Part shown: positions 3,310-30,211 of the stretch, one piece after another
Numbering within the stretch: position 1 is the first letter of the stretch
Layout: every line of letters begins with the position of its first letter
IMG/VR virus record: IMGVR_UViG_3300037843_000385
Direction: 5' to 3' (one strand)
DNA length: 30,659 nucleotides
From: a virus
The notes under the pieces: model-generated
The model's input: only the letters and a program-made list of their open reading frames with translations
Told to the model about the DNA's origin: nothing
Databases searched by the model: none
Made by a program: the position numbers and the translations under genes

Positions 3310-4509
3310 ATGTCACATTTTGCGGTTTTGGTGGTGGGCGACGACGTCGAAGGTCAATTGCAACGTTATCACGAATTTGAATGTACTGGGCAGGACGACC
3401 AGTACGTCAAGGAGATCGACGAGACCGAGGAGGCCCGCAAAACATTCGAGAAGAACACCACCAGGCGGTACAGAGACCCCGAGGGCAACCTCCATTCGCC
3501 CTACACCCCGGAGGGCAGCCACAGCCCGCTGTTCTGGCGCGAGCTTACGCCCGAGGAAGAGACAAAATATGGCAAGCGCATCAGCAGCAGCGAGGGGGAC
3601 GATGGGCTGCGGCTGGAATCCACCGACTGGCACGACGGCAGGGGCTACCGCACGAAGGCGTTCGCCTGGCCCTCCGATGGCTGGTCTGAGGTCGAGGTTC
3701 CGACGAGTACCGTCCAGACGTTCGCCGAGTTCTGCGCGGACTACTACGGTCACGAGGCCATCCCGTTCGGGACGGAACCCGACCTCGCGGAGAAGCACAA
3801 GTACGGCTACACCATCGTTGACGAGCAAGACAACGTTATCAGGACAATCAATCGCACCAACCCGGACCGCAAGTGGGACGGGTACACCGTGGGCGGGCGC
3901 TGGAACGGCTTCTTCAAGCTGAAGCCGCTCGCCGTGGGCGTCCTCGGCGAACCCGGCCTACAGGTCATGAACAGCAACTACGAGCCGGTCGCCGAAAACC
4001 GCGCCGACGTCATCATGAAGGGCGATATCGACGTCGAGGGCATGCGCGACGAGGCCGGGGAGAAAGCTGCCGAGCGCTACGACATATTCGAGCGAGTCAC
4101 CGCTGGCCTGCCGCAGGCGCTCTCCTGGAAGCAGGTGCAGGAGAACAACCGCACGGGGAAGATGGACGAGGAGTACCCCGGCGAGCCGGAGGTGGACTGG
4201 AAGACGGCGAGGGAGGATTACAACTCCCAGCCCATGGTGAAGGCCCTCCGCGCTGACAAGGAGACGATCTGGTACGAGCTTGACGAGTTCCTCTACACCC
4301 GCGAGGAGTACATCCAGCAGCACCGCGACCGCGCCCTGGTGCTCTTCGCCGTCGTGAAGGACGGTGTGTGGTACGAGCGCGGCAGGATGGGCTGGTGGGG
4401 CATGGTCTCCGACGAGAAGGACCGCGACGAGTGGAACAGGCAATTCTCGGCGCTGATCGACGGCCTGCCGGACAACACATTGCTGAGCGTCGTGGATTGT
4501 CACATATGA
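3310..4509 (+). CDS. Large acidic hypothetical protein (399 aa)
   Basis: Shine-Dalgarno AAAGGGGA precedes the ATG. The ORF is long with consistent codon usage. I recognise no domain. Confidence 0.75.
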   Translation: MSHFAVLVVGDDVEGQLQRYHEFECTGQDDQYVKEIDETEEARKTFEKNTTRRYRDPEGNLHSPYTPEGSHSPLFWRELTPEEETKYGKRISSSEGDDGLRLESTDWHDGRGYRTKAFAWPSDGWSEVEVPTSTVQTFAEFCADYYGHEAIPFGTEPDLAEKHKYGYTIVDEQDNVIRTINRTNPDRKWDGYTVGGRWNGFFKLKPLAVGVLGEPGLQVMNSNYEPVAENRADVIMKGDIDVEGMRDEAGEKAAERYDIFERVTAGLPQALSWKQVQENNRTGKMDEEYPGEPEVDWKTAREDYNSQPMVKALRADKETIWYELDEFLYTREEYIQQHRDRALVLFAVVKDGVWYERGRMGWWGMVSDEKDRDEWNRQFSALIDGLPDNTLLSVVDCHI

Positions 4510-5898: not shown

Positions 5899-5927
5899 CT
5901 TGACAGTTTTCCAGTTTTTCGGTATCT
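5899..5927 (+). promoter_or_regulatory. Sigma70-like promoter, TTGACA-N17-TATCTT
   Basis: Consensus -35 hexamer with 17-nt spacing. Directly upstream of a short terminated unit and the tRNA island. Confidence 0.55.
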
Positions 5928-5942
5928 TATGTAGGTGAGAAC

Positions 5943-6108: not shown

Positions 6109-6184
6109 AGGGGAGTAAGATAACCGGCAGTCGGTCGGTCTCCAAAACCGTACAGTGGCGGTTCAAATCCGTCCTCCCCTGCCA
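6109..6184 (+). tRNA. tRNA-Trp (anticodon CCA), CCA encoded
   Basis: Acceptor AGGGGAG/CTCCCCT, T-arm GGCGG-TTCAAAT-CCGTC, anticodon loop CTCCAAA. 76 nt. Confidence 0.6.
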
Positions 6185-6218
6185 AAGTTTTTGAAAGGAA
6201 AGTAGTTACAAGTTCTAT

Positions 6219-6295
6219 GGTGGCGGTCGTCTAGCGGCTAAGACACCTGACTGTGGATCAGGATAGCATGGGTCCGAATCCCATTCGCCACCCCA
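6219..6295 (+). tRNA. tRNA-His (GTG) with G-1, CCA encoded
   Basis: GGTGGCGG...CGCCACCCCA ends match E. coli tRNA-His. Anticodon loop is CTGTGGA. Confidence 0.75.
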
Positions 6296-6314
6296 ATTTT
6301 GAGGAGAGACGTTG

Positions 6315-6390
6315 GTCCGTGTAGCTCAGAAGGAAGAGCACCACGCTCCGAACGTGGAGGTCGCGAGTCCGAGTCTCGCCATGGACACCA
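6315..6390 (+). tRNA. tRNA-Arg (CCG), CCA encoded
   Basis: Acceptor GTCCGTG/CATGGAC, anticodon stem CCACG/CGTGG with loop CTCCGAA, T-loop TCCGAGT. Confidence 0.7.
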
Positions 6391-6394
6391 GTTT

Positions 6395-6601
6395 ATGATG
6401 ACGTTCACGATCAGCGACGAGAAGGCGGCGCAGTACAAGGCGTGGAGCGAAGAGCACCGGAAGACGTGCGGGGCGCGACCGGATATGAGCATGGCCCTGT
6501 ACAGCTTCGTGTTCACGCCGAACGGTCTTGGGGACGGCATATCGGTCAAATGCCCCTGCGGCGAGAGGGTATTCCTCGACGCCGGGGACGAGGATTTATA
6601 G
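6395..6601 (+). CDS. Small protein (68 aa) embedded between tRNAs, CPCG motif
   Basis: The track ORF 6299..6601 starts inside a tRNA. The first ATG after the tRNA, at 6395, gives MMTFTISDEKAAQYKAW... Confidence 0.5.
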   Translation: MMTFTISDEKAAQYKAWSEEHRKTCGARPDMSMALYSFVFTPNGLGDGISVKCPCGERVFLDAGDEDL

Positions 6602-6679
6602 GCGCGTGTAGCTCAGCCGGAATAGAGCGCTATTCTGCGAAGATAGAGGTCGGCGGTCCGAGTCCGCCCATGCGCACCA
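6602..6679 (+). tRNA. tRNA-Arg (GCG), CCA encoded
   Basis: Acceptor GCGCGTG/CATGCGC, anticodon stem CTATT/GATAG with loop CTGCGAA. 78 nt with a 10-nt D-loop. Confidence 0.6.
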
Positions 6680-6687
6680 AGTTTTTT

Positions 6688-6765
6688 GCCGGGCTAGCCA
6701 TTGGACATGGCGGCACGCCTTCGAAACGTGCACGTTTGCGGGTTCGAATCCCGCGCCCGGTTCCA
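6688..6765 (+). tRNA. tRNA of uncertain identity. The perfect anticodon stem GCACG/CGTGC encloses a 9-nt loop, CCTTCGAAA. An alternative 7-nt loop CTTCGAA gives Arg (TCG).
   Basis: Acceptor GCCGGGC/GCCCGGT, T-arm GCGGG-TTCGAAT-CCCGC, CCA encoded. 78 nt. Confidence 0.5.
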
Positions 6766-6775
6766 GGTTTTTTTT

Positions 6776-6853
6776 GCGCCCGTAGCTCAGCGGAATAAGA
6801 GCATTGGTCTACGAAACCAAGGGTCGCGTGTTCGAATCACGCCGGGCGCACCA
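6776..6853 (+). tRNA. tRNA-Arg (ACG), CCA encoded
   Basis: Acceptor GCGCCCG/CGGGCGC, anticodon stem TTGGT/ACCAA with loop CTACGAA. Confidence 0.75.
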
Positions 6854-6857
6854 ACAT

Positions 6858-6944
6858 TGAGGTGTAGGGGAATCGGTAGACCCACCTGGCTGTTACCCAG
6901 GAGCCGAAAGGCACTTGCAGGTTCGAAGCCTGCCGCCTCAGCCA
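6858..6944 (+). tRNA. Type-II tRNA (long variable arm, discriminator G73) with anticodon GTT (Asn codons). Atypical Ser-like/Asn chimera.
   Basis: Acceptor TGAGGTG/CGCCTCA, 3-bp D-stem, anticodon stem CCTGG/CCAGG with loop CTGTTAC, variable arm AGCCGAAAGGCACTT, T-arm GCAGG-TTCGAAG-CCTGC, then G and CCA. 87 nt. Confidence 0.55.
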
Positions 6945-6962
6945 GTTTAGAGGGAGGATTCA

Positions 6963-7294
<332 letters not shown>

Positions 7295-7299
7295 AGTTT

Positions 7300-7374
7300 G
7301 GGTCTGTAATTCAGCGGCTAGAAGCCCTCGCTCTTAACGAGGTAACGAGAGTTCGAGTCTCTCCAGACCCACCA
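7300..7374 (+). tRNA. tRNA-Lys (CTT), CCA encoded
   Basis: Acceptor GGGTCTG/CAGACCC, anticodon stem CCTCG/CGAGG with loop CTCTTAA. Confidence 0.65.
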
Positions 7375-7394
7375 GGCATCTGATAGAATAGGGC

Positions 7395-7796
7395 ATGAAC
7401 AAGAAAGCTCAAGGCACTCGGTCAGTCGGTGCGGTGATGAGCCACTTCATCAAAGCAGGCAAAATCGTCTTGATGCCGATTGGAGACAATGAGCGATACG
7501 ATTTCGTCATTGATGAGGATGGGCGGTTTCGGCGTATTCAAGTCAAAACGGGCAAGGTCAAGAACGGAGCGATAGAGTTTAGTACCGCCAGCACTAATCT
7601 TGAAAACGGTAAGTGGGTGAGACACGGTTATAGGGGACAGATTGACGATTTCGCAGTTTACTGCCCTAAACTCGACAAGGTTTACCTTGTGCCTATAGAC
7701 GAAGCAGGTGGTCAGACACACTGTTCTTTGCGGCTTGAGCCAGCGAAGAACGGTCAACAAAAGGGCATTAGGCTGGCTGAGCAGTACGAGGTTTAG
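7395..7796 (+). CDS. PD-(D/E)xK-type (Hjc-like) nuclease, candidate free-standing homing endonuclease (133 aa)
   Basis: ...ERYDFVIDEDGRFRRIQVKTGK fits a D...(D/E)xK-like core (D, ED, QVK). The gene is visibly lower in GC than its flanks. It sits between two tRNA-Lys(CTT) genes, and its stop overlaps the downstream tRNA by 1 nt. Confidence 0.6.
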   Translation: MNKKAQGTRSVGAVMSHFIKAGKIVLMPIGDNERYDFVIDEDGRFRRIQVKTGKVKNGAIEFSTASTNLENGKWVRHGYRGQIDDFAVYCPKLDKVYLVPIDEAGGQTHCSLRLEPAKNGQQKGIRLAEQYEV

Positions 7797-7871
7797 GGCT
7801 ACTAACTCAACTGGTAGAGTAGCAGACTCTTAATCTGCGAGTTCGGGGTTCGAGTCCCCGGTGGCCCACCA
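7796..7871 (+). tRNA. tRNA-Lys (CTT), CCA encoded
   Basis: Acceptor GGGCTAC/GTGGCCC, D-stem ACTC/GAGT, anticodon stem GCAGA/TCTGC with loop CTCTTAA. Confidence 0.7.
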
Positions 7872-7910
7872 AGTTTCCGGGTATTAGAACTCTTAGGATA
7901 GGAGGTCAGC

Positions 7911-8456
7911 ATGCCCGACGTACTGGTTCTCGACATGAACTACCGCCCTGTCGGCTTCAAGTCCTGGCAGGACGCGATCACGAACGTGTGGAAGGAGCGG
8001 GCCATCGTCGTCAAGGAGGACGAGTCCGGCCTGAAGCTCCACTCCCCGTCGTTCGAGGTCGGGATGCCGAGGGTGATCCGCGTGCGCAACGCCTGGGTGA
8101 AGCGGCGCAAGACATCCGTGCCGTTCTCGCGGCGCAACCTGTACGTCCGCGACGGCGGCGAGTGCCAGTACTGCGGTAGGCACCTCAAGCTGGAGGAGTA
8201 CACCCTCGATCACGTGATCCCGCGTTCGCAGGGCGGCGTGAGTTCGTGGGTCAACATGGTCCTCGCCTGCATGCGCTGCAACAAGCACAAGGCGGGCCGG
8301 ACGCCGCAGCAGGCAGGGATGCCCCTCCTGCACAAGCCCGTCGTCCCGAAGGTGGACGACCCGAAGTACAACTTCAAGCTCCACATCCGCAAGATGCGGC
8401 CCGAGTGGAAAGAATGGGAGAATTTCCTTTACTGGAATATCGAGCTTGACGAGTAG
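7911..8456 (+). CDS. HNH endonuclease (181 aa)
   Basis: Shine-Dalgarno GGATAGGAGG precedes the ATG. Motifs are CQYCG...LDHVIPRSQGG...CMRCNKHK. Confidence 0.85.
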   Translation: MPDVLVLDMNYRPVGFKSWQDAITNVWKERAIVVKEDESGLKLHSPSFEVGMPRVIRVRNAWVKRRKTSVPFSRRNLYVRDGGECQYCGRHLKLEEYTLDHVIPRSQGGVSSWVNMVLACMRCNKHKAGRTPQQAGMPLLHKPVVPKVDDPKYNFKLHIRKMRPEWKEWENFLYWNIELDE

Positions 8457-8468
8457 ATCAAGCGACAA

Positions 8469-8500
8469 GCCCCGGAGGAGCAACCCTCCTCCGGGCGAAA
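8469..8500 (+). terminator. Stem-loop, possible terminator or processing site
   Basis: CCCGGAGGAG-CAAC-CCTCCTCCGGG hairpin after the HNH gene. Only a weak T-tract follows (AAATTT). Confidence 0.35.
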
Positions 8501-8503
8501 TTT

Positions 8504-8581
8504 GGCCCCGTAGCTCAGCGGAATAAGAGCGACGCACTCCTAACGCGTAGGTCACTGGTCCGAATCCAGTCGGGGTCACCA
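8504..8581 (+). tRNA. tRNA-Arg (CCT), CCA encoded
   Basis: Acceptor GGCCCCG/CGGGGTC, anticodon loop CTCCTAA with an A-C mismatch at 31-39, T-loop TCCGAAT. Confidence 0.55.
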
Positions 8582-8594
8582 ATTTTTGAGTTGT

Positions 8595-8668
8595 TGCCTC
8601 CTCGTCCAACGGTAGGACACGGGTCTCTGGAACCCGGTATCGCGGTTCGAATCCTCGGGAGGCAGCCA
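8595..8668 (+). tRNA. tRNA-Gln (CTG), U1-A72, CCA encoded
   Basis: Acceptor TGCCTCC/GGAGGCA, D-stem GTCC/GGAC, anticodon stem CGGGT/ACCCG with loop CTCTGGA. Confidence 0.65.
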
Positions 8669-8675
8669 AATTTGC

Positions 8676-8704
8676 TGGACAATGCCGCGAAAATGCGGTA
8701 TAAT
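8676..8704 (+). promoter_or_regulatory. Promoter TGGACA-N17-TATAAT driving a leaderless transcript
   Basis: Perfect -10 hexamer with 17-nt spacing. ATG lies 7 nt downstream of the -10. Confidence 0.6.
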
Positions 8705-8711
8705 GATCAGA

Positions 8712-8891
8712 ATGAACTCGACGCTGAAGACGATCCTGAAGGCCGCGGCGATAGCGGTCGTGCCGGGGCTGGGCGCTTTCTGGCTGTTAAGCAGGCTCGC
8801 GAAAGAGCACGAGCGGCAGGAGTTCAGGGAGTACATCCGCAAGACCTACGGGAAGGGAAGCAAGTACGAGAACGAAAATGTTGAGCCTTAG
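8712..8891 (+). CDS. Small membrane protein (59 aa), probably leaderless
   Basis: Track ORF 8682..8891 starts upstream of the -10 element. The in-frame ATG at 8712 lies at the predicted transcription start. Hydrophobic segment AAAIAVVPGLGAFWLL. Confidence 0.5.
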   Translation: MNSTLKTILKAAAIAVVPGLGAFWLLSRLAKEHERQEFREYIRKTYGKGSKYENENVEP

Positions 8892-8892
8892 C

Positions 8893-9003
8893 ATGAACGC
8901 GGACACGCTCTTCAACGTCCTCAGCGGCGTTGTGATGCTTCTCTCCGTCTACGCCTTCTACCAAGCCTCCACCTACGACGCAAAGTTCAGAAGAAAACGC
9001 TGA
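8893..9003 (+). CDS. Possible 36-aa membrane peptide (MNADTLFNVLSGVVMLLSVYAFYQ...)
   Basis: ATG 1 nt after the upstream stop. Not in the ORF track (too short). Hydrophobic core and basic tail. Confidence 0.3.
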   Translation: MNADTLFNVLSGVVMLLSVYAFYQASTYDAKFRRKR

Positions 9004-9015
9004 CCCACATCCTGC

Positions 9016-9098
9016 GGGCGCGTAGTCGGGGGAAGCCTCTACCTTCTTAGCCGTAAACGGAACTGAAAATGAGAGTTCGACTCTCTCCGCGCCTACCA
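9016..9098 (+). tRNA. Aberrant tRNA-like element (83 nt): good acceptor, T-arm and ACCA end, but no canonical D-arm or anticodon-arm fold
   Basis: Acceptor GGGCGCG/CGCGCCT, T-arm GAGAG-TTCGACT-CTCTC, then A and CCA. The only 5-bp anticodon-like stem is GGAAG/CTTCT with loop CCTCTAC. There is an extra CCG-TAAA-CGG hairpin. Confidence 0.35.
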
Positions 9099-9108
9099 AC
9101 CTTTTCGG

Positions 9109-9183
9109 GGGCCGCTAATTCAATTGGCAGAAGCGCCGACTTTTAATCGGTTAATCCCGGTCCGAGTCCGGGGCGGCCTACCA
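9109..9183 (+). tRNA. tRNA-Lys (TTT), CCA encoded
   Basis: Acceptor GGGCCGC/GCGGCCT, anticodon stem GCCGA/TCGGT with loop CTTTTAA, T-arm CCCGG-TCCGAGT-CCGGG. Confidence 0.7.
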
Positions 9184-9249: not shown

Positions 9250-9987
9250 ATGAACCTGATGCTCGGAAAGAGGGACGCGAAGTTCAACCCGTACGCGCTC
9301 CGCATGGCGAAGTACGTGGACAAGACTTATGTTCCGCCAGCGTTCGCCGACCACACGCCCTACGGCTTCACAGCGTGGGGCATGATGTTAAACGACCAAC
9401 TTGGGGACTGCACAATCGCCGCCTGCGGTCATGCGCTCCAAGTCTTCACGCAGGGCAGGATCACGGAGCCGGACGCGACCATCGAGTCCTACTACTCGAA
9501 GTGGTGCGGCTACGTTATCGGCAACCCCGCGACCGACCAGGGCGGGGTCGAGGCCGACGTGCTCGGCGACTGGAAGGCGCAGGGCTTCGACGGTCACGCG
9601 CTGGAGGGCTACGTCGATCCGCAGCCTTCTAACTTATCGCATGTCATGCACTCCATCGCCGAGTTCGGATTGGTTTATCTAGGCTTCCAGCTTCCTAACT
9701 CCGCGATGACTCAGTTCCAGAACGGTCAAGTCTGGGACGTCGTCGCAAACGATGGCGGGATCGCCGGAGGACATGCGGTCATCGCTCCGGCATACCATAC
9801 GGAAGACCCGACCTACAACAAGGAGACGACTATTACGTGCATCACATGGGGACAAAAGCAAAAGATGACTGTCGCCTTTTGGGAAAAATACGTTGACGAG
9901 AGTCACACCCTACTGGCAGCAGCGTGGCAGCCAGCGGGCGTCAACCTCGTGGGTCTCCGTGCCGACCTGGCCTTCATGGCTGGTTAA
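9250..9987 (+). CDS. Hypothetical protein with papain-like Cys/His motifs (QLGDCTIAAC ... GGHAVIAPAY ... ITWGQ), tentative cysteine peptidase
   Basis: 245-aa ORF. Motif similarity to clan-CA peptidases is by eye only. Confidence 0.65.
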   Translation: MNLMLGKRDAKFNPYALRMAKYVDKTYVPPAFADHTPYGFTAWGMMLNDQLGDCTIAACGHALQVFTQGRITEPDATIESYYSKWCGYVIGNPATDQGGVEADVLGDWKAQGFDGHALEGYVDPQPSNLSHVMHSIAEFGLVYLGFQLPNSAMTQFQNGQVWDVVANDGGIAGGHAVIAPAYHTEDPTYNKETTITCITWGQKQKMTVAFWEKYVDESHTLLAAAWQPAGVNLVGLRADLAFMAG

Positions 9988-12925: not shown

Positions 12926-13297
12926 ATGAGCTTCACTGGGTTCCTACAGCAATACATCAGGCCCTCCCGCTGGTGGAGACGCCAGAAGACCGTGCAAGTC
13001 ACCGTCTGGCCCCGCTTCCTCGCGCAGGCGCTATGTCCGCACATCCGCAAGCAGATGATCATGTGGGACGTGGAAGCCAAGACCAAGACCAGCATGTGCC
13101 TCGACTGTCACAAGCATGTCACGGAAGTGAACGACTGCGCCCACGGCGAGGTGCGCCCATCCATGTGGGAGACGGCCGACGGGCAGACGAAGCTCGTCCC
13201 CCGTGCCTACCGCTGCGACAATTGCGGCGTGGGGCTTGAGGCGAAAGACCTGCCTTCCGGTGTGATGATCACGCACCTGAACATCGAGACACGCTGA
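12926..13297 (+). CDS. Hypothetical Cys/His-rich protein (123 aa)
   Basis: Motifs CLDCHKH...CAHGE...CDNCG. Complete ORF. Confidence 0.55.
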   Translation: MSFTGFLQQYIRPSRWWRRQKTVQVTVWPRFLAQALCPHIRKQMIMWDVEAKTKTSMCLDCHKHVTEVNDCAHGEVRPSMWETADGQTKLVPRAYRCDNCGVGLEAKDLPSGVMITHLNIETR

Positions 13298-14541
13298 TGG
13301 ACGAACACGACGCGGAGCAATACTACAGACACATGAGAGACGACCTGAAATACCAGTACGCCAACCTCGTGAGGGGCGTGATCTTCGGACAGGCGATAGG
13401 CGACGCCCTTGGGCACCCCATCGAGTTCGAGAAGACCCACAAGGTCGCCGACCTGGCGGACGACAACACGTTCACCGACGACACACAGATGTTCTGCGCC
13501 ATCGGCGAGGCGATGCTGGACGCACCGCCGCACAGGGACACCGACCTGTTCATGGACGCGCTCACCAAGCGTTTCGTCGAGTGGAGGCAGAATCCGCTGG
13601 GCGGGACGCACCGCGCTCCCGGCGGCACGTGCATGGAAGCCGTGCGCAAGCTAGGCACGGGACGCCACTGGCGTCAGACCGGGGCGACACGGGACGGCAA
13701 GGGCAACGGCTCCGCGATGCGTGCGGGGATCGTCGGCGCTCGCTATTGGAAGGAGCCGACCATGGCCTTCAGGATCGGCTGCTTGACCAGCGTCGTCACC
13801 CACAACAACCTTGAAGCTATACTCGCGGCAGGCATGGTCGCTTTCCTTGTTTCTCGTTCGATCCAAGGGTGCGGCTTGTTCGAGGCGGTCGCCGAGGGGC
13901 TTGCCCTCTGCGCGGACTTCGAGAACCAAGTGCCCGACTACCCGACCAACAACCTCCCGTTGAACAACATGCGCGACGGCCAAAGCCCGTGGAAGGCGAT
14001 AGCGAGCTTTTCGCGGGGCTTCATCCTCGGCGAAACGGACATGGCAACGAAGGAGTTCCTCGCCGGGAACGGCGATGATTTCACCGCCGTCCCGGCCGTC
14101 TCCGAGGCGATATTCTTCAATGCCCGGCACGACAACTACGACCCCATGGTCATCGAGTGCGCCAACGCCAGCGACGACTCCGACACCATCACCGCGATCA
14201 CCGGGACGATAGCAGGGGCGCGGTTCGGCTTCGACATGATTAACGCGAACGTCCAAATAGACCGGAGGGACGGGTGGACGGACAGGATCGAGATGCGCGA
14301 TTATCTCGAAGACCTTTCCAAGCGCATCTTCGAGACGAGCCTCGGTGAGGGGGAGATCGAGGAGGCCCGCGCCGCGCATGACATCGACGCCGCCCTCGGC
14401 GAGGAGTACGCGGAGGACGAGGTGACGTTCGAGGACGTGATCGCGGGCAAAATAGCCGACGACGGCGAAGTGCCGGAGGACGAGGTGACGTTCGGGGACC
14501 TTTCCGGCGGCGAGGACCCGGACTGGGAGGTGGAATTCTGA
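13297..14541 (+). CDS. ADP-ribosylglycohydrolase family protein (ARH/DraG-like) with an acidic repeat tail (414 aa)
   Basis: GQAIGDALGHPIEF, TDDTQM, GNGSAMR and DSDTITAITGTIAGARFG signatures. C-terminal direct repeat EDEVTF(E/G)D. Confidence 0.85.
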   Translation: MDEHDAEQYYRHMRDDLKYQYANLVRGVIFGQAIGDALGHPIEFEKTHKVADLADDNTFTDDTQMFCAIGEAMLDAPPHRDTDLFMDALTKRFVEWRQNPLGGTHRAPGGTCMEAVRKLGTGRHWRQTGATRDGKGNGSAMRAGIVGARYWKEPTMAFRIGCLTSVVTHNNLEAILAAGMVAFLVSRSIQGCGLFEAVAEGLALCADFENQVPDYPTNNLPLNNMRDGQSPWKAIASFSRGFILGETDMATKEFLAGNGDDFTAVPAVSEAIFFNARHDNYDPMVIECANASDDSDTITAITGTIAGARFGFDMINANVQIDRRDGWTDRIEMRDYLEDLSKRIFETSLGEGEIEEARAAHDIDAALGEEYAEDEVTFEDVIAGKIADDGEVPEDEVTFGDLSGGEDPDWEVEF

Positions 14542-15269
14542 TGGAAACGCTCTTGAACGGCATCATAAGCGCTCTGGCAGCTATGGTCGCACCCGGCGTG
14601 ACAACCAAGCAACTCGACGAGCAGGCGGAGCGCCTGTGCGCCGTCCACGGTGTCAAGCCCGCGTTCAAGGGCTACAAGCCGCCCAACTTCGGCAAGGAGG
14701 AGGGCTTCCCGAACGCGCTCTGCGTCTCGATTAACGAGGAGGTCATCCACGGCATTCCGTCCGACAGGCAAATAGTCGAGGGGGACGTTGTAAAATTGGA
14801 CATGGGGATCGAGCAGGACGGGCAGTTTGACGATGGTGCGACAACCGTGCTCGTCGGTGATATAGACCCGAAGACTGGGCATATCCTCGGCACGTCCGCG
14901 ACAGCGCGAAAGCTCGTGAAGGCGACAAAGGAAGCATTGGACGCCGGAATCGCGCAAGCGAAAGCCGGGAAGACCACGCACGACATCGCAGCCGTCGTCG
15001 AGGCGGTTGCGAAAAAATACGATGTGCATGTTATCCACGGCTACGGCGGGCACGGCATTGGGGAACAGCTTCACATGGAGCCGCATATCCCGAACGAGGT
15101 CGCTGGCGAGGCGGCCCCAGTAAAGCTTGAGAAGGGCATGCGTATCGCCATCGAGCCGATGTTCGGCTCGAATCACGGATTCACGCAAGTAGCGAAGGAT
15201 GGATGGACGGTGAAGCTCCGCAATGGGGGCCTCGCCGCGCACTTCGAACAGACAGTCACCATTGAGTGA
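14541..15269 (+). CDS. map: Methionine aminopeptidase, type I
   Basis: FPNALCVSINEEVIHGIP, GDVVKLDMG, HGYGGHGIG, IAIEPM and HFEQTVTI match the MetAP-I metal-binding signatures. Confidence 0.9.
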   Translation: METLLNGIISALAAMVAPGVTTKQLDEQAERLCAVHGVKPAFKGYKPPNFGKEEGFPNALCVSINEEVIHGIPSDRQIVEGDVVKLDMGIEQDGQFDDGATTVLVGDIDPKTGHILGTSATARKLVKATKEALDAGIAQAKAGKTTHDIAAVVEAVAKKYDVHVIHGYGGHGIGEQLHMEPHIPNEVAGEAAPVKLEKGMRIAIEPMFGSNHGFTQVAKDGWTVKLRNGGLAAHFEQTVTIE

Positions 15270-24827: not shown

Positions 24828-25742
24828 ATGGCAAAGCAGACCAAAACCAAGACTCAGACAGCGGCTCCTGCCACTGAACCGAAAATCAAGATCAATCCTG
24901 CTGTCGAAACCCCCGCAAAGCAGACCACTGTCAAGTCTGTCTGGAAGGGCTACCTCTCGGCGTTCGGTATCCTGACCGTGCCTGTGAAGGCTTACAAAGC
25001 GACGGACATTGACGGAATCGAGCGCAACATGTACCACAGCACCGATTGCGTGAACCGTCTCAAGTACCAAGACATGGTCTGCTCCGGTTGCGGCGCGACC
25101 GTGCCTGACGCGAGGAAAAACGCCCTGTACGGCGTCACCGTTGACGGCAAAATTGTGTTCGTTACTGACGATGAAATGAAGGCTCAACAGCCCTCGAAAG
25201 ACGGCGCGATCAGCATCACCGAATTTGTCCCCGCCGAGTCCGTCGAACCCATCTACTACGAATCAACCGAATATCTTGCATGCGGCGAGGCTACTCCTCA
25301 GCTTCAAGAGGCTTACGCCAACTTCCGCGAAGGGCTGATGCTCAGCGGTCGCATCGCCATCGGTCGAGTCGTGAGCCGTGGTCACGAGTATACCGTCGCC
25401 ATCCGCCCTCACGGCAATGCCATGCTGATGAGCTACCTGTTCGCGGAGTACGAAATTCGGAACTGCGACAAGTTCAGCGCGACCGCAGCGAACCCGACGT
25501 ATGCCCAAGTTTTTGCTGGACTCATGAGCGAATCTGACTTCGCCAAGGATAAGTTCACCCCGGCAGATTACGACAGTTGCCTCAAGAACCAGCGTGCGAT
25601 GATAGCCAAGAAGGCGGCGGGCCAGACCGTAGAATGCCCGAAGCCGCAAGAACAATCTGCTACGGCGGAAGATGTGCTATCTGCTCTCAAGGCGATGCTT
25701 GAAGTCTCTAAAAAGGCGAAGGCTGCTGCGGCTGGCAAGTAA
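24828..25742 (+). CDS. ku: Ku (NHEJ DNA-end-binding) homologue with an inserted zinc ribbon and a Lys/Ala-rich tail (304 aa)
   Basis: SVWKGYLSAFGILTVPVKAYKA is the bacterial Ku N-terminal signature. CVNRLKYQDMVCSGCG is a zinc ribbon. C-terminus KKAKAAAAGK. Confidence 0.8.
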   Translation: MAKQTKTKTQTAAPATEPKIKINPAVETPAKQTTVKSVWKGYLSAFGILTVPVKAYKATDIDGIERNMYHSTDCVNRLKYQDMVCSGCGATVPDARKNALYGVTVDGKIVFVTDDEMKAQQPSKDGAISITEFVPAESVEPIYYESTEYLACGEATPQLQEAYANFREGLMLSGRIAIGRVVSRGHEYTVAIRPHGNAMLMSYLFAEYEIRNCDKFSATAANPTYAQVFAGLMSESDFAKDKFTPADYDSCLKNQRAMIAKKAAGQTVECPKPQEQSATAEDVLSALKAMLEVSKKAKAAAAGK

Positions 25743-29785: not shown

Positions 29786-30211
29786 ATGGCTCGCCGCGCA
29801 TCAAACACGATTCCGAAGAAAGACTACTTCGAGCGGCTCCGCGAGGGCACGTCGCACCCGACCTACGACCCGGACGCGGAAGGCTACGGCAGCGTGTCGG
29901 AGTGGGTCTCGGGGTTCAACGTTCGAATGGGATTCGAGGAAGCGCGGGCGCACAAGGCGTCCGGCACCAAGCGCAAGGCGTGGAAGTCCGACTGGGCCGT
30001 GCTCGGCGAGATCGCCGGGGTCCGCCTCGACGAAAACTCGATGTGGAACGAGATCAAGTCCGCGTTCCGCAAGGCCGCGATGAACTGCCACCCCGACCGC
30101 GTGTCGCAGCACGGCAAGACCGTGGAACAGGCTACCGAGGAATTCAAGGACGCGAACGCCGCGTTCGCGATGCTAGAGGACATCTACAACGTCCAAGGAA
30201 GGCTCAAGTAA
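29786..30211 (+). CDS. J-domain (DnaJ-like) protein (141 aa)
   Basis: C-terminal IKSAFRKAAMNCHPDRVS...EEFKDANAAFAMLED carries the HPD motif. Confidence 0.75.
   Translation: MARRASNTIPKKDYFERLREGTSHPTYDPDAEGYGSVSEWVSGFNVRMGFEEARAHKASGTKRKAWKSDWAVLGEIAGVRLDENSMWNEIKSAFRKAAMNCHPDRVSQHGKTVEQATEEFKDANAAFAMLEDIYNVQGRLK

Follow-up and report, generated by a model that had tools for sequence, protein, structure and literature searches.

Introduction

Dense arrays of transfer RNA (tRNA) genes are a known feature of jumbo and huge phages such as XacN1 and XbC2, and tRNA regions with homing endonucleases also occur in T4 and T5. The function of phage tRNA arrays is debated, the proposals being codon compensation, the replacement of decaying host tRNA and the evasion of tRNA-cutting defences. 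Here we describe a tRNA island in a 30,659-bp stretch of viral DNA (IMG/VR record IMGVR_UViG_3300037843_000385), apparently an entire contig and referred to below as the window, in which five arginine tRNA genes carry all four NCG anticodons (CCG, GCG, UCG and ACG, i.e. every base at wobble position 34 of the CGN box) together with CCU. The island is like the described arrays in that it is a dense one-strand cluster with interspersed HNH-type genes, located in a very large phage and accompanied by translation genes. A huge-phage tRNA array is a known structure; what is new, and in our judgement real and well supported, is a conserved complete NCG set that includes both wobble purines.

Typical bacteria use only the ACG and CCG arginine anticodons for the CGN codons (Yokobori 2013). 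According to the review literature, no lineage combines isoacceptors that have adenosine (A34) and guanosine (G34) at the wobble position, eukaryotic tRNA-Ser being the sole exception, and ArgGCG is "missing" in bacteria, phages being without the same genes. This "excluded purine" (anticodon-sparing) rule concerns the same choice of wobble purine as is made here in the CGN box, but the phage clade described below encodes and conserves both and is, judged by its gene content, a conserved exception to mutual exclusion. In Mollicutes without the deaminase TadA, all CGN codons are likewise read by a G34+U34 pair, GCG and UCG (Yokobori et al. 2013); there GCG replaces ACG, whereas in the phages GCG and UCG are added beside ACG and CCG.

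The other described systems differ in further respects. The 56 tRNAs of Xanthomonas phage XacN1 are, suppressors apart, all of species that the host encodes, with no added sense anticodons, and Arg(ACG) is the only arginine tRNA in the 24-kb tRNA region of XbC2 examined; the present clade, in contrast, keeps five Arg anticodons, ACG and GCG among them. Bacterial L-arrays (Santamaria-Gomez et al. 2021) contain 10-34 tRNAs, homing endonucleases have been reported in them, and, as here, arrays with GCG often have UCG as well. A last likeness is with phage isoacceptors that evade nucleases aimed at the corresponding host tRNAs (T5 against AriB of PARIS, mycobacteriophage against VapC), and tRNAs for Lys, Asn and His are also present in the island; those cases rest on substitutions at the cleavage site relative to host tRNAs and on rescue, whereas the window is known from its genes alone.

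With A34 and G34 both kept in one codon box, the clade provides a clean, conserved test case. It makes testable whether hosts deaminate phage A34 tRNAs, whether inosine is limiting during infection, and whether redundancy within one box is a defence-driven trait.

The tRNA island and its arginine genes

ARAGORN identified 13 tRNA genes at 6109-9183, all on the + strand and all with an encoded CCA, in the order Trp(CCA), His(GUG), Arg(CCG), Arg(GCG), Arg(UCG), Arg(ACG), Asn(GUU) twice, Lys(CUU) twice, Arg(CCU), Gln(CUG) and Lys(UUU), which makes one Trp, one His, five Arg, two Asn, three Lys and one Gln gene for six amino acids. The Rfam tRNA model RF00005 scores 12 of the 13 at 49-68 bits (cut-off 29), the exception being the UCG gene. 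A phage tRNA array is expected to have at least 2 tRNAs per kb on one strand, homing-type endonucleases and a phage context; we found 13 tRNAs in 3.1 kb of one strand with such endonuclease genes between them, and the phage context is backed by rIIA, rIIB and PHROG matches.

The arginine genes are located at 6315-6390 (CCG; Rfam 64.4 bits), 6602-6679 (GCG; 58.7 bits), 6688-6765 (UCG; 36.9 bits when searched alone, with a cloverleaf as the minimum free energy (MFE) fold), 6776-6853 (ACG; 65.8 bits) and 8504-8581 (CCU; 57.1 bits, with an A31.C39 mismatch), all on the + strand. The five anticodons agree with those given by a sequence-only reading of this DNA, including GCG at 6602 and UCG at 6688. 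That reading had also described the four NCG genes as consecutive, and they are consecutive tRNA genes, yet a conserved 68-codon open reading frame (ORF) of unknown function (6395-6601, + strand) lies between the CCG and GCG genes. This ORF has a CPCG motif and no Pfam match, is 60-61% identical to ORFs at the same position in two relatives (L320 and L322, introduced below) and is a called gene in a further contig, L010.

Work in Escherichia coli has defined the identity set of arginyl-tRNA synthetase (ArgRS) as A20, C35, G36 or U36, and A73 or G73, base 73 being a minor element. The D loop contains GGA (providing A20) in each of the five genes, which also have C35 and G36 or U36, as well as 7-nt anticodon loops with U33 and a purine at position 37 (CUCCGAA, CUGCGAA, CUUCGAA, CUACGAA and CUCCUAA). 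Base 73 is A in the CCG, GCG, ACG and CCU genes; the UCG gene lacks a purine at this position.

Conservation of the anticodon set

In order to find related islands, we used as a synteny anchor a conserved 399-aa protein of unknown function (3310-4509, + strand; PHROG 10079), which has no match by sequence in Pfam, NCBIfam or PDB, and obtained relatives by metagenome contig searches, protein searches and contig look-ups; the relatives of the anchor in IMG/VR proved too distant and were not used. Six relatives were retained, with anchor identities of 64% (L290), 65% (L317), 63% (L318), 57% (L320), 57% (L321) and 58% (L322), three of which are contigs of 436-465 kb (L290, 436 kb; L320, 448 kb; L321, 465 kb).

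The island lies directly downstream of the anchor in all six relatives and in each keeps the four NCG anticodons and CCU, its content being Trp, His, Arg CCG/GCG, UCG, ACG, Asn, Asn, Lys CUU (two genes), Arg CCU, Gln CUG and Lys UUU, with an additional Arg UCU in L290. Rfam supports the GCG, CCG and ACG genes of the relatives, an aberrant ACG gene in L318 excepted. Because the same anticodons recur in six diverged relatives, the arginine set is not a product of chance. Two other contigs (L319 and L323) encode the anchor protein and are without the island at this position; the trait therefore marks a sub-clade and not the whole anchor-protein family.

Orthologous Arg tRNAs average 76-82% identity among the genomes, and in the GCG gene 8 of the 21 base pairs show compensatory double changes over the seven genomes. 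The gene order is not fixed: GCG precedes CCG in L290 and L317, and in L321 an Asn gene is inserted and ACG precedes UCG. In L318 and L321 the structurally odd UCG gene has been exchanged for a canonical-looking tRNA, again with UCG, and L318 has undergone a non-orthologous replacement of its ACG gene.

Clustering and pairwise identity divide the five arginine genes into three backbones, GCG with CCG, ACG with CCU, and UCG alone, by which the members of each of the first two groups are paralogues and UCG a separate lineage. The GCG and CCG genes are 75-91% identical within a genome, and the window CCG gene is closest (82%) to the GCG gene of L322; identity between ACG and CCU reaches 86% (in L317). 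The anticodon stems of GCG and CCG are identical in L317, L320 and L322, and base 34 is the sole difference between their stem-loops in L317 and L322. That genes one base apart in the anticodon arm never collapse to one argues for selection on the anticodon. More generally, selection acts on the anticodon set itself, because the anticodons persist through reordering, non-orthologous replacement and the near-identity of the GCG and CCG paralogues.

The aberrant tRNA-Arg(UCG) gene

The UCG gene (6688-6765) is a real but aberrant tRNA. It is missed by Rfam at default filters, and the two types of prediction disagree on its anticodon arm: in Infernal and in the MFE fold a stem of 5 bp carries a 9-nt loop (CCUUCGAAA), and in ARAGORN a C31.A39 mismatch closes a 7-nt loop, CUUCGAA. 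In both registers the middle triplet of the loop is UCG. The caution that the sequence-only reading had attached to this fold was thus justified.

Orthologues in L290, L317, L320 and L322 are 82-92% identical to the window copy. Pair 31-39 is U31-A39 in three of the five genes, the C31.A39 mismatch being present in the window and in L322, and RNAalifold applied to the five sequences chose the 7-nt loop, with compensatory changes in 4 of 23 pairs. An additional covarying pair (G-C in four genes, A-U in one) lengthens the anticodon stem to six, and a pair of the acceptor stem also covaries (C7-G66, U7-A66, G7-C66). We adopted the 7-nt register because of U31-A39 in the orthologues and the RNAalifold covariation, and rejected the 9-nt loop on U31-A39 and the covarying extra pair. 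Selenocysteine tRNA (RF01852) was also ruled out: the gene scores 28.5 bits against a threshold of 47, its anticodon is UCG and not UCA, it has no long arm, and its acceptor stem is of 7 bp.

The oddities of the gene comprise a 5-bp D stem with a 5-nt D loop, the absence of A14, a variable region of 6-7 nt, G1.U72, and U73 (C73 in L320). It is at most 40% identical to approximately 250 other Arg tRNAs that we collected, and an exact-pattern search of IMG/VR for this odd tRNA gave 0 matches. Since A20 (within GGA), C35 and G36 are retained, arginine is the best assignment for the tRNA, which would make it a probable ArgRS substrate.

A partly similar island was seen in an IMG/VR contig (L147, 7600-9100, - strand) with a similar HNH gene (68% DNA identity). 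It contains His, Arg CCG, UCG and ACG, two Asn and two Lys genes, among others, is without GCG, and its three NCG Arg tRNAs share G1.U72 and U73 with the UCG gene of the window.

Distribution of GCG and ACG genes

We surveyed IMG/VR and cellular genomes with a pattern consisting of a tRNA-Arg framework (GTAGCTCAG...GAGC) followed by either the GCG or the ACG loop. The resulting counts are limited by the pattern, refer to the matches listed and to stretches of 1-15 kb, and are to be read as indications, not frequencies.

The GCG loop was found in 28 IMG/VR contigs, nearly all of them large arrays, with UCG in 15 of 25 and ACG in 4 of 25. The ACG loop was present in at least 120 contigs, and GCG accompanied it in 1 of the 120 matches listed. 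In cellular genomes the GCG loop occurs in at least 120 contigs, mostly as single chromosomal genes, in Chloroflexota (within a conserved Met-Val-Leu-Arg(GCG)-Val operon), Planctomycetota, the Candidate Phyla Radiation (CPR), Acidobacteriota and others. Among the cellular matches listed there are also 25 long arrays, 14 of which have UCG. None of the 119 cellular GCG loci listed has ACG within an 8-kb stretch, whereas the phage clade always has both. Among the matches listed, ACG and GCG were seen together only in phages, namely the present clade and four other lineages (L029 with L036, L034, L043 and L060); in L043 and L060 the NCG set is likewise complete. When the GCG gene was used in distant searches, no informative cultured relative emerged.

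Taken together, these counts suggest that mobile tRNA arrays typically provide for arginine with GCG+UCG, a statement that we did not find in the literature searched. The claim of the sequence-only reading that bacteria rarely carry GCG holds for the model phyla (Yokobori 2013; Ehrlich 2021), but is too strong in view of the cellular and IMG/VR contigs detected here.

Decoding of the arginine codons

By the wobble rules (Yokobori 2013), ACG converted to ICG (I, inosine) together with CCG is complete for the CGN codons, and so is GCG together with UCG; the first pair needs TadA and the second does not. We propose that the phage supplies two parallel CGN readers, each of which would be sufficient alone: in one, host TadA would convert ACG to ICG, with CCG as the partner, and the other, GCG with UCG, would be independent of the deaminase. 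Each CGN codon would gain a Watson-Crick cognate, CGC would be read by two tRNAs, and CCU would add the decoding of AGG. Translation of the CGC-rich phage genes could in this way become independent of the amount, the modification state and the integrity of host tRNA-Arg.

The arginine set would then belong to a wider translation island, in which the relatives also have genes for an initiation factor 3 (IF3) C-terminal domain and for histidyl-tRNA synthetase (HisRS)-like and ArgRS-like proteins. We count the methionine aminopeptidase and DnaJ-domain genes of the window as support for this view, as well as the recurrence of the GCG+UCG pair in phage and mobile tRNA arrays. We assign a probability of roughly 0.55 to this reading, i.e. 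redundant, host-independent arginine decoding within translational self-sufficiency.

Codon usage was determined for 35 window genes, in which the Arg codons are CGC (45%), AGG (19%), CGG (18%), CGT (8%), CGA (5%) and AGA (5%). CGC is dominant, with a share of 44-52% of the Arg codons. The doubled readers of CGC and CGT match this dominance, and the lack of a UCU tRNA in the window matches the rarity of AGA. In the relatives AGG varies between 1 and 19% and CGA between 2 and 14%, while CCU and UCG are always kept. Simple tuning thus has mixed support, and a tRNA set that stays constant despite such variation is better explained as complete and redundant than as adjusted to single codons.

The loop of the ACG tRNA, CUACGAA on a 5-bp stem, is invariant in all seven genomes; it is also the loop of E. 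coli tRNA-Arg2, a native substrate of TadA. Because this loop is kept throughout, the inosine route does not appear to have been abandoned. Of the earlier proposal that the phage does not rely on TadA, one half stands, as GCG and UCG are predicted to read all CGN codons without a deaminase, but the retention of ACG with a TadA-type loop speaks against the other half. Neither the window nor the 10-kb flanks of the relatives showed a gene for a deaminase.

Several points weigh against redundant decoding as the explanation. Four tRNAs exceed what sufficiency demands, and why redundancy itself should be favoured is something that we infer. The ACG gene of L318 is an ARAGORN call only, below the Rfam gathering score, and for the UCG tRNA, with its U73 and unusual D arm, charging with arginine is predicted from A20, C35 and G36 only. 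What the sequences show is that the genes are present, conserved and structurally constrained; their expression and aminoacylation, the I34 status and the selective agent are inferred. The island spans only six amino acids, and the view is limited to a 30,659-bp contig of the phage genome.

A bolder version of the proposal, which we consider doubtful, is that the huge-phage clade runs I34+C34 and G34+U34 as two independent CGN systems, an insurance against a lost host inosine pathway or against effectors that destroy tRNA-Arg. As a variant, A34 might stay unmodified, so that one Watson-Crick tRNA would serve each CGN codon without wobble; the aberrant UCG tRNA could in that case be a modification-escaping "superwobble" reader.

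Alternative explanations

The arginine tRNAs might instead serve in counter-defence, a possibility that the sequence-only reading had also raised, either as substitutes for host tRNA-Arg species that an anticodon nuclease has cleaved, be it colicin D-like or another effector specific for tRNA-Arg, or as nuclease-resistant variants, as T5 tRNA-Lys/Thr/Asn are for PARIS. We regard this as a tentative explanation that deserves weight without being probable. Phage tRNAs have been shown or proposed to evade tRNA-targeting defences, colicin D has been reported to target tRNA-Arg(CGN) with a preference for modified tRNA, and the Lys, Asn and His tRNAs of the island correspond to targets of the AriB, PrrC and colicin E5 type in the literature. 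In addition, a gene for an RlaP RNA-repair nucleotidyltransferase (1186-2037, + strand; PF10127, E=7.6e-19) is conserved 4 kb upstream of the island, being present in L318, L320, L321 and L322. Colicin D cuts at 38/39, and the UCG and CCU tRNAs are mismatched at the adjoining pair 31-39. However, this mismatch is not conserved, as shown by U31-A39 in three of the five UCG orthologues, and the ACG, GCG and CCG loops have the plain consensus C-U-NCG-A-A. Protein-family scans revealed no RNA ligase or polynucleotide kinase (PNK) among the window genes.

Plain codon compensation or gene dosage, in which the tRNAs follow the preference of the phage for G/C-ending codons and GCG is simply a second gene for CGC, seems unlikely. 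Several codon shares agree with it (AAG 81% with two CUU genes, AAC 86% with two GUU genes, CGC 45% with GCG and ACG, AGG 19% with CCU), and XacN1 has been reported to show such a trend. It does not account for the UCG gene, which is kept, and was replaced in two genomes, for the rarest Arg codon (CGA, 2-14%), or for the retention of CCU where AGG makes up 1-2%; nor does the island have a UUG tRNA, though CAA makes up 28% of the Gln codons.

Still less probable, in our view, is a reversed form of host mimicry, in which the host natively uses GCG, perhaps without TadA, and ACG is an add-on whose unmodified A34 reads CGU, giving one Watson-Crick tRNA per codon. GCG genes are indeed chromosomal in Chloroflexota, Planctomycetota, CPR and others, and identity between those of the clade and genes of Chloroflexota reaches 92%. 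However, this similarity hardly exceeds the average over the cellular GCG genes as a whole (0.83 versus 0.76) and is comparable to the GCG-CCG paralogy within the clade, and it was too weak to be used for naming a Chloroflexota host. The perfect TadA-type loop of ACG in all seven genomes also speaks against this reading.

That the set is a neutral by-product of duplication, anticodon drift and shuffling by the HNH and PD-(D/E)XK endonucleases, with no selection for completeness, is hardly credible, since the four NCG anticodons are present in seven of seven genomes at 57-65% flanking protein identity, the stems covary, and where a gene was replaced by a non-orthologous one the anticodon was the same again. 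In favour of it are the endonuclease genes among the tRNAs, the varying gene order among relatives and the decay of one Lys(UUU) copy in the window.

The remaining genes of the island

The island starts with tRNA-Trp(CCA) (6109-6184) and tRNA-His(GUG) (6220-6295), whose order is the same in the relatives. Downstream of the ACG gene are two tRNA-Asn(GUU) genes (6858-6944, with a long variable arm, and 7220-7294) and tRNA-Lys(CUU) (7300-7374), followed by a PD-(D/E)XK endonuclease gene (7437-7796; PF11645, E=1.5e-34), the second tRNA-Lys(CUU) (7796-7871) and an HNH endonuclease gene (7911-8456; PF01844, E=3e-14) that is also present in L317, L318, L320, L321 and L322. tRNA-Gln(CUG) (8595-8668) follows the CCU gene, and tRNA-Lys(UUU) (9109-9183) ends the island. 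All of these are on the + strand. A decayed tRNA (9016-9095, + strand; Rfam 28.6 bits against the cut-off of 29) occupies the place that in the relatives belongs to the first member of a pair of Lys(UUU) genes; its acceptor and T arms are intact and its anticodon region is disrupted.

The islands of the relatives contain protein genes that are absent from that of the window, encoding an ArgRS-like protein that is truncated and has a DALR anticodon-binding domain, a protein with the C-terminal domain of IF3, a HisRS-like fragment and an R2K ATP-grasp protein (L318 14149-15138 and 13733-13981, L320 12443-13060, L318 15673-16509). The HisRS-like fragment sits between the Trp and His tRNAs. Just downstream of the island, matches to the SAM-I/IV riboswitch (48-52 bits, gathering score 41) were found in L318 (18614-18727, + strand), L320 (16834-16945, - strand) and L317 (10295-10411, - strand); an Rfam scan of the window gave no equivalent.

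Gene context of the window

The window belongs to an uncultivated large phage with rIIA and rIIB, has a G+C content of 59%, and has nearly all of its genes on the + strand. Besides rIIA and rIIB, Pfam- and PHROG-type matches identify an ADP-ribosylglycohydrolase (13297-14541), a methionine aminopeptidase (14541-15269), Ku (24828-25742), a DnaJ-domain protein (29786-30211), RlaP, a protein with a major vault protein (MVP) shoulder domain, and the HNH and PD-(D/E)XK endonucleases. The vault-like gene (8-772) and the RlaP gene have the same order upstream of the island in L318, L320, L321 and L322.

A near-identity DNA search of INPHARED returned a single match, 61 nt within a tRNA-Asn gene, and thus no close cultured phage. 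A shared exact protein led to the same phage in eight other assemblies, at 99.97-100% identity, which added no diversity. For the methionine aminopeptidase, more than 100 homologues were detected, a large number of them on contigs of at least 400 kb, so that it marks a large huge-phage clade; all of the homologues fall within this clade and indicate no host, and a search with a Lys tRNA, made with the same aim, found no plasmid match. A promoter-like site (5900-5928, + strand; 10 of 12 consensus positions), which is weak evidence, lies 180 nt upstream of the first tRNA, and in a scan of the window the counts of promoters and terminators were not above those of shuffled controls.

Relatives found through a protein encoded downstream of the island (9250-9987) were rejected for the comparison, as they are not syntenic; some of them have other arrays (Leu/Ser/Tyr) and some have none. 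In two of these distant relatives (L005, 470-2405, and L006, 6591-8334) the gene adjoins arrays in which each of the five Leu anticodons is present, along with Ser and Tyr. These phages may thus tend in general to carry complete isoacceptor sets, arranged by type of tRNA.

The first tRNA-Asn(GUU) of the window is one of four such phage genes, 84-87 nt in length, whose extended variable arm ends in a GAAA tetraloop; the others are in the phage contigs L321 (15067-15151), L007 (5061-5145) and L027 (1138-1221, - strand). They have U1-A72 and G73, as in ordinary tRNA-Asn, and their positional orthologues in L290, L317, L318, L320 and L322 are of normal length (75-76 nt). To our knowledge, tRNA-Asn with a long arm is not a described class.

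The tRNA-Lys(CUU) at 7300-7374 is identical at 75 of 75 positions to its counterpart in L290 (16908-16982), while the neighbouring tRNAs are 61-88% identical between the two genomes and the flanking protein is 64% identical. This identity would reflect either extreme constraint or a recent exchange.

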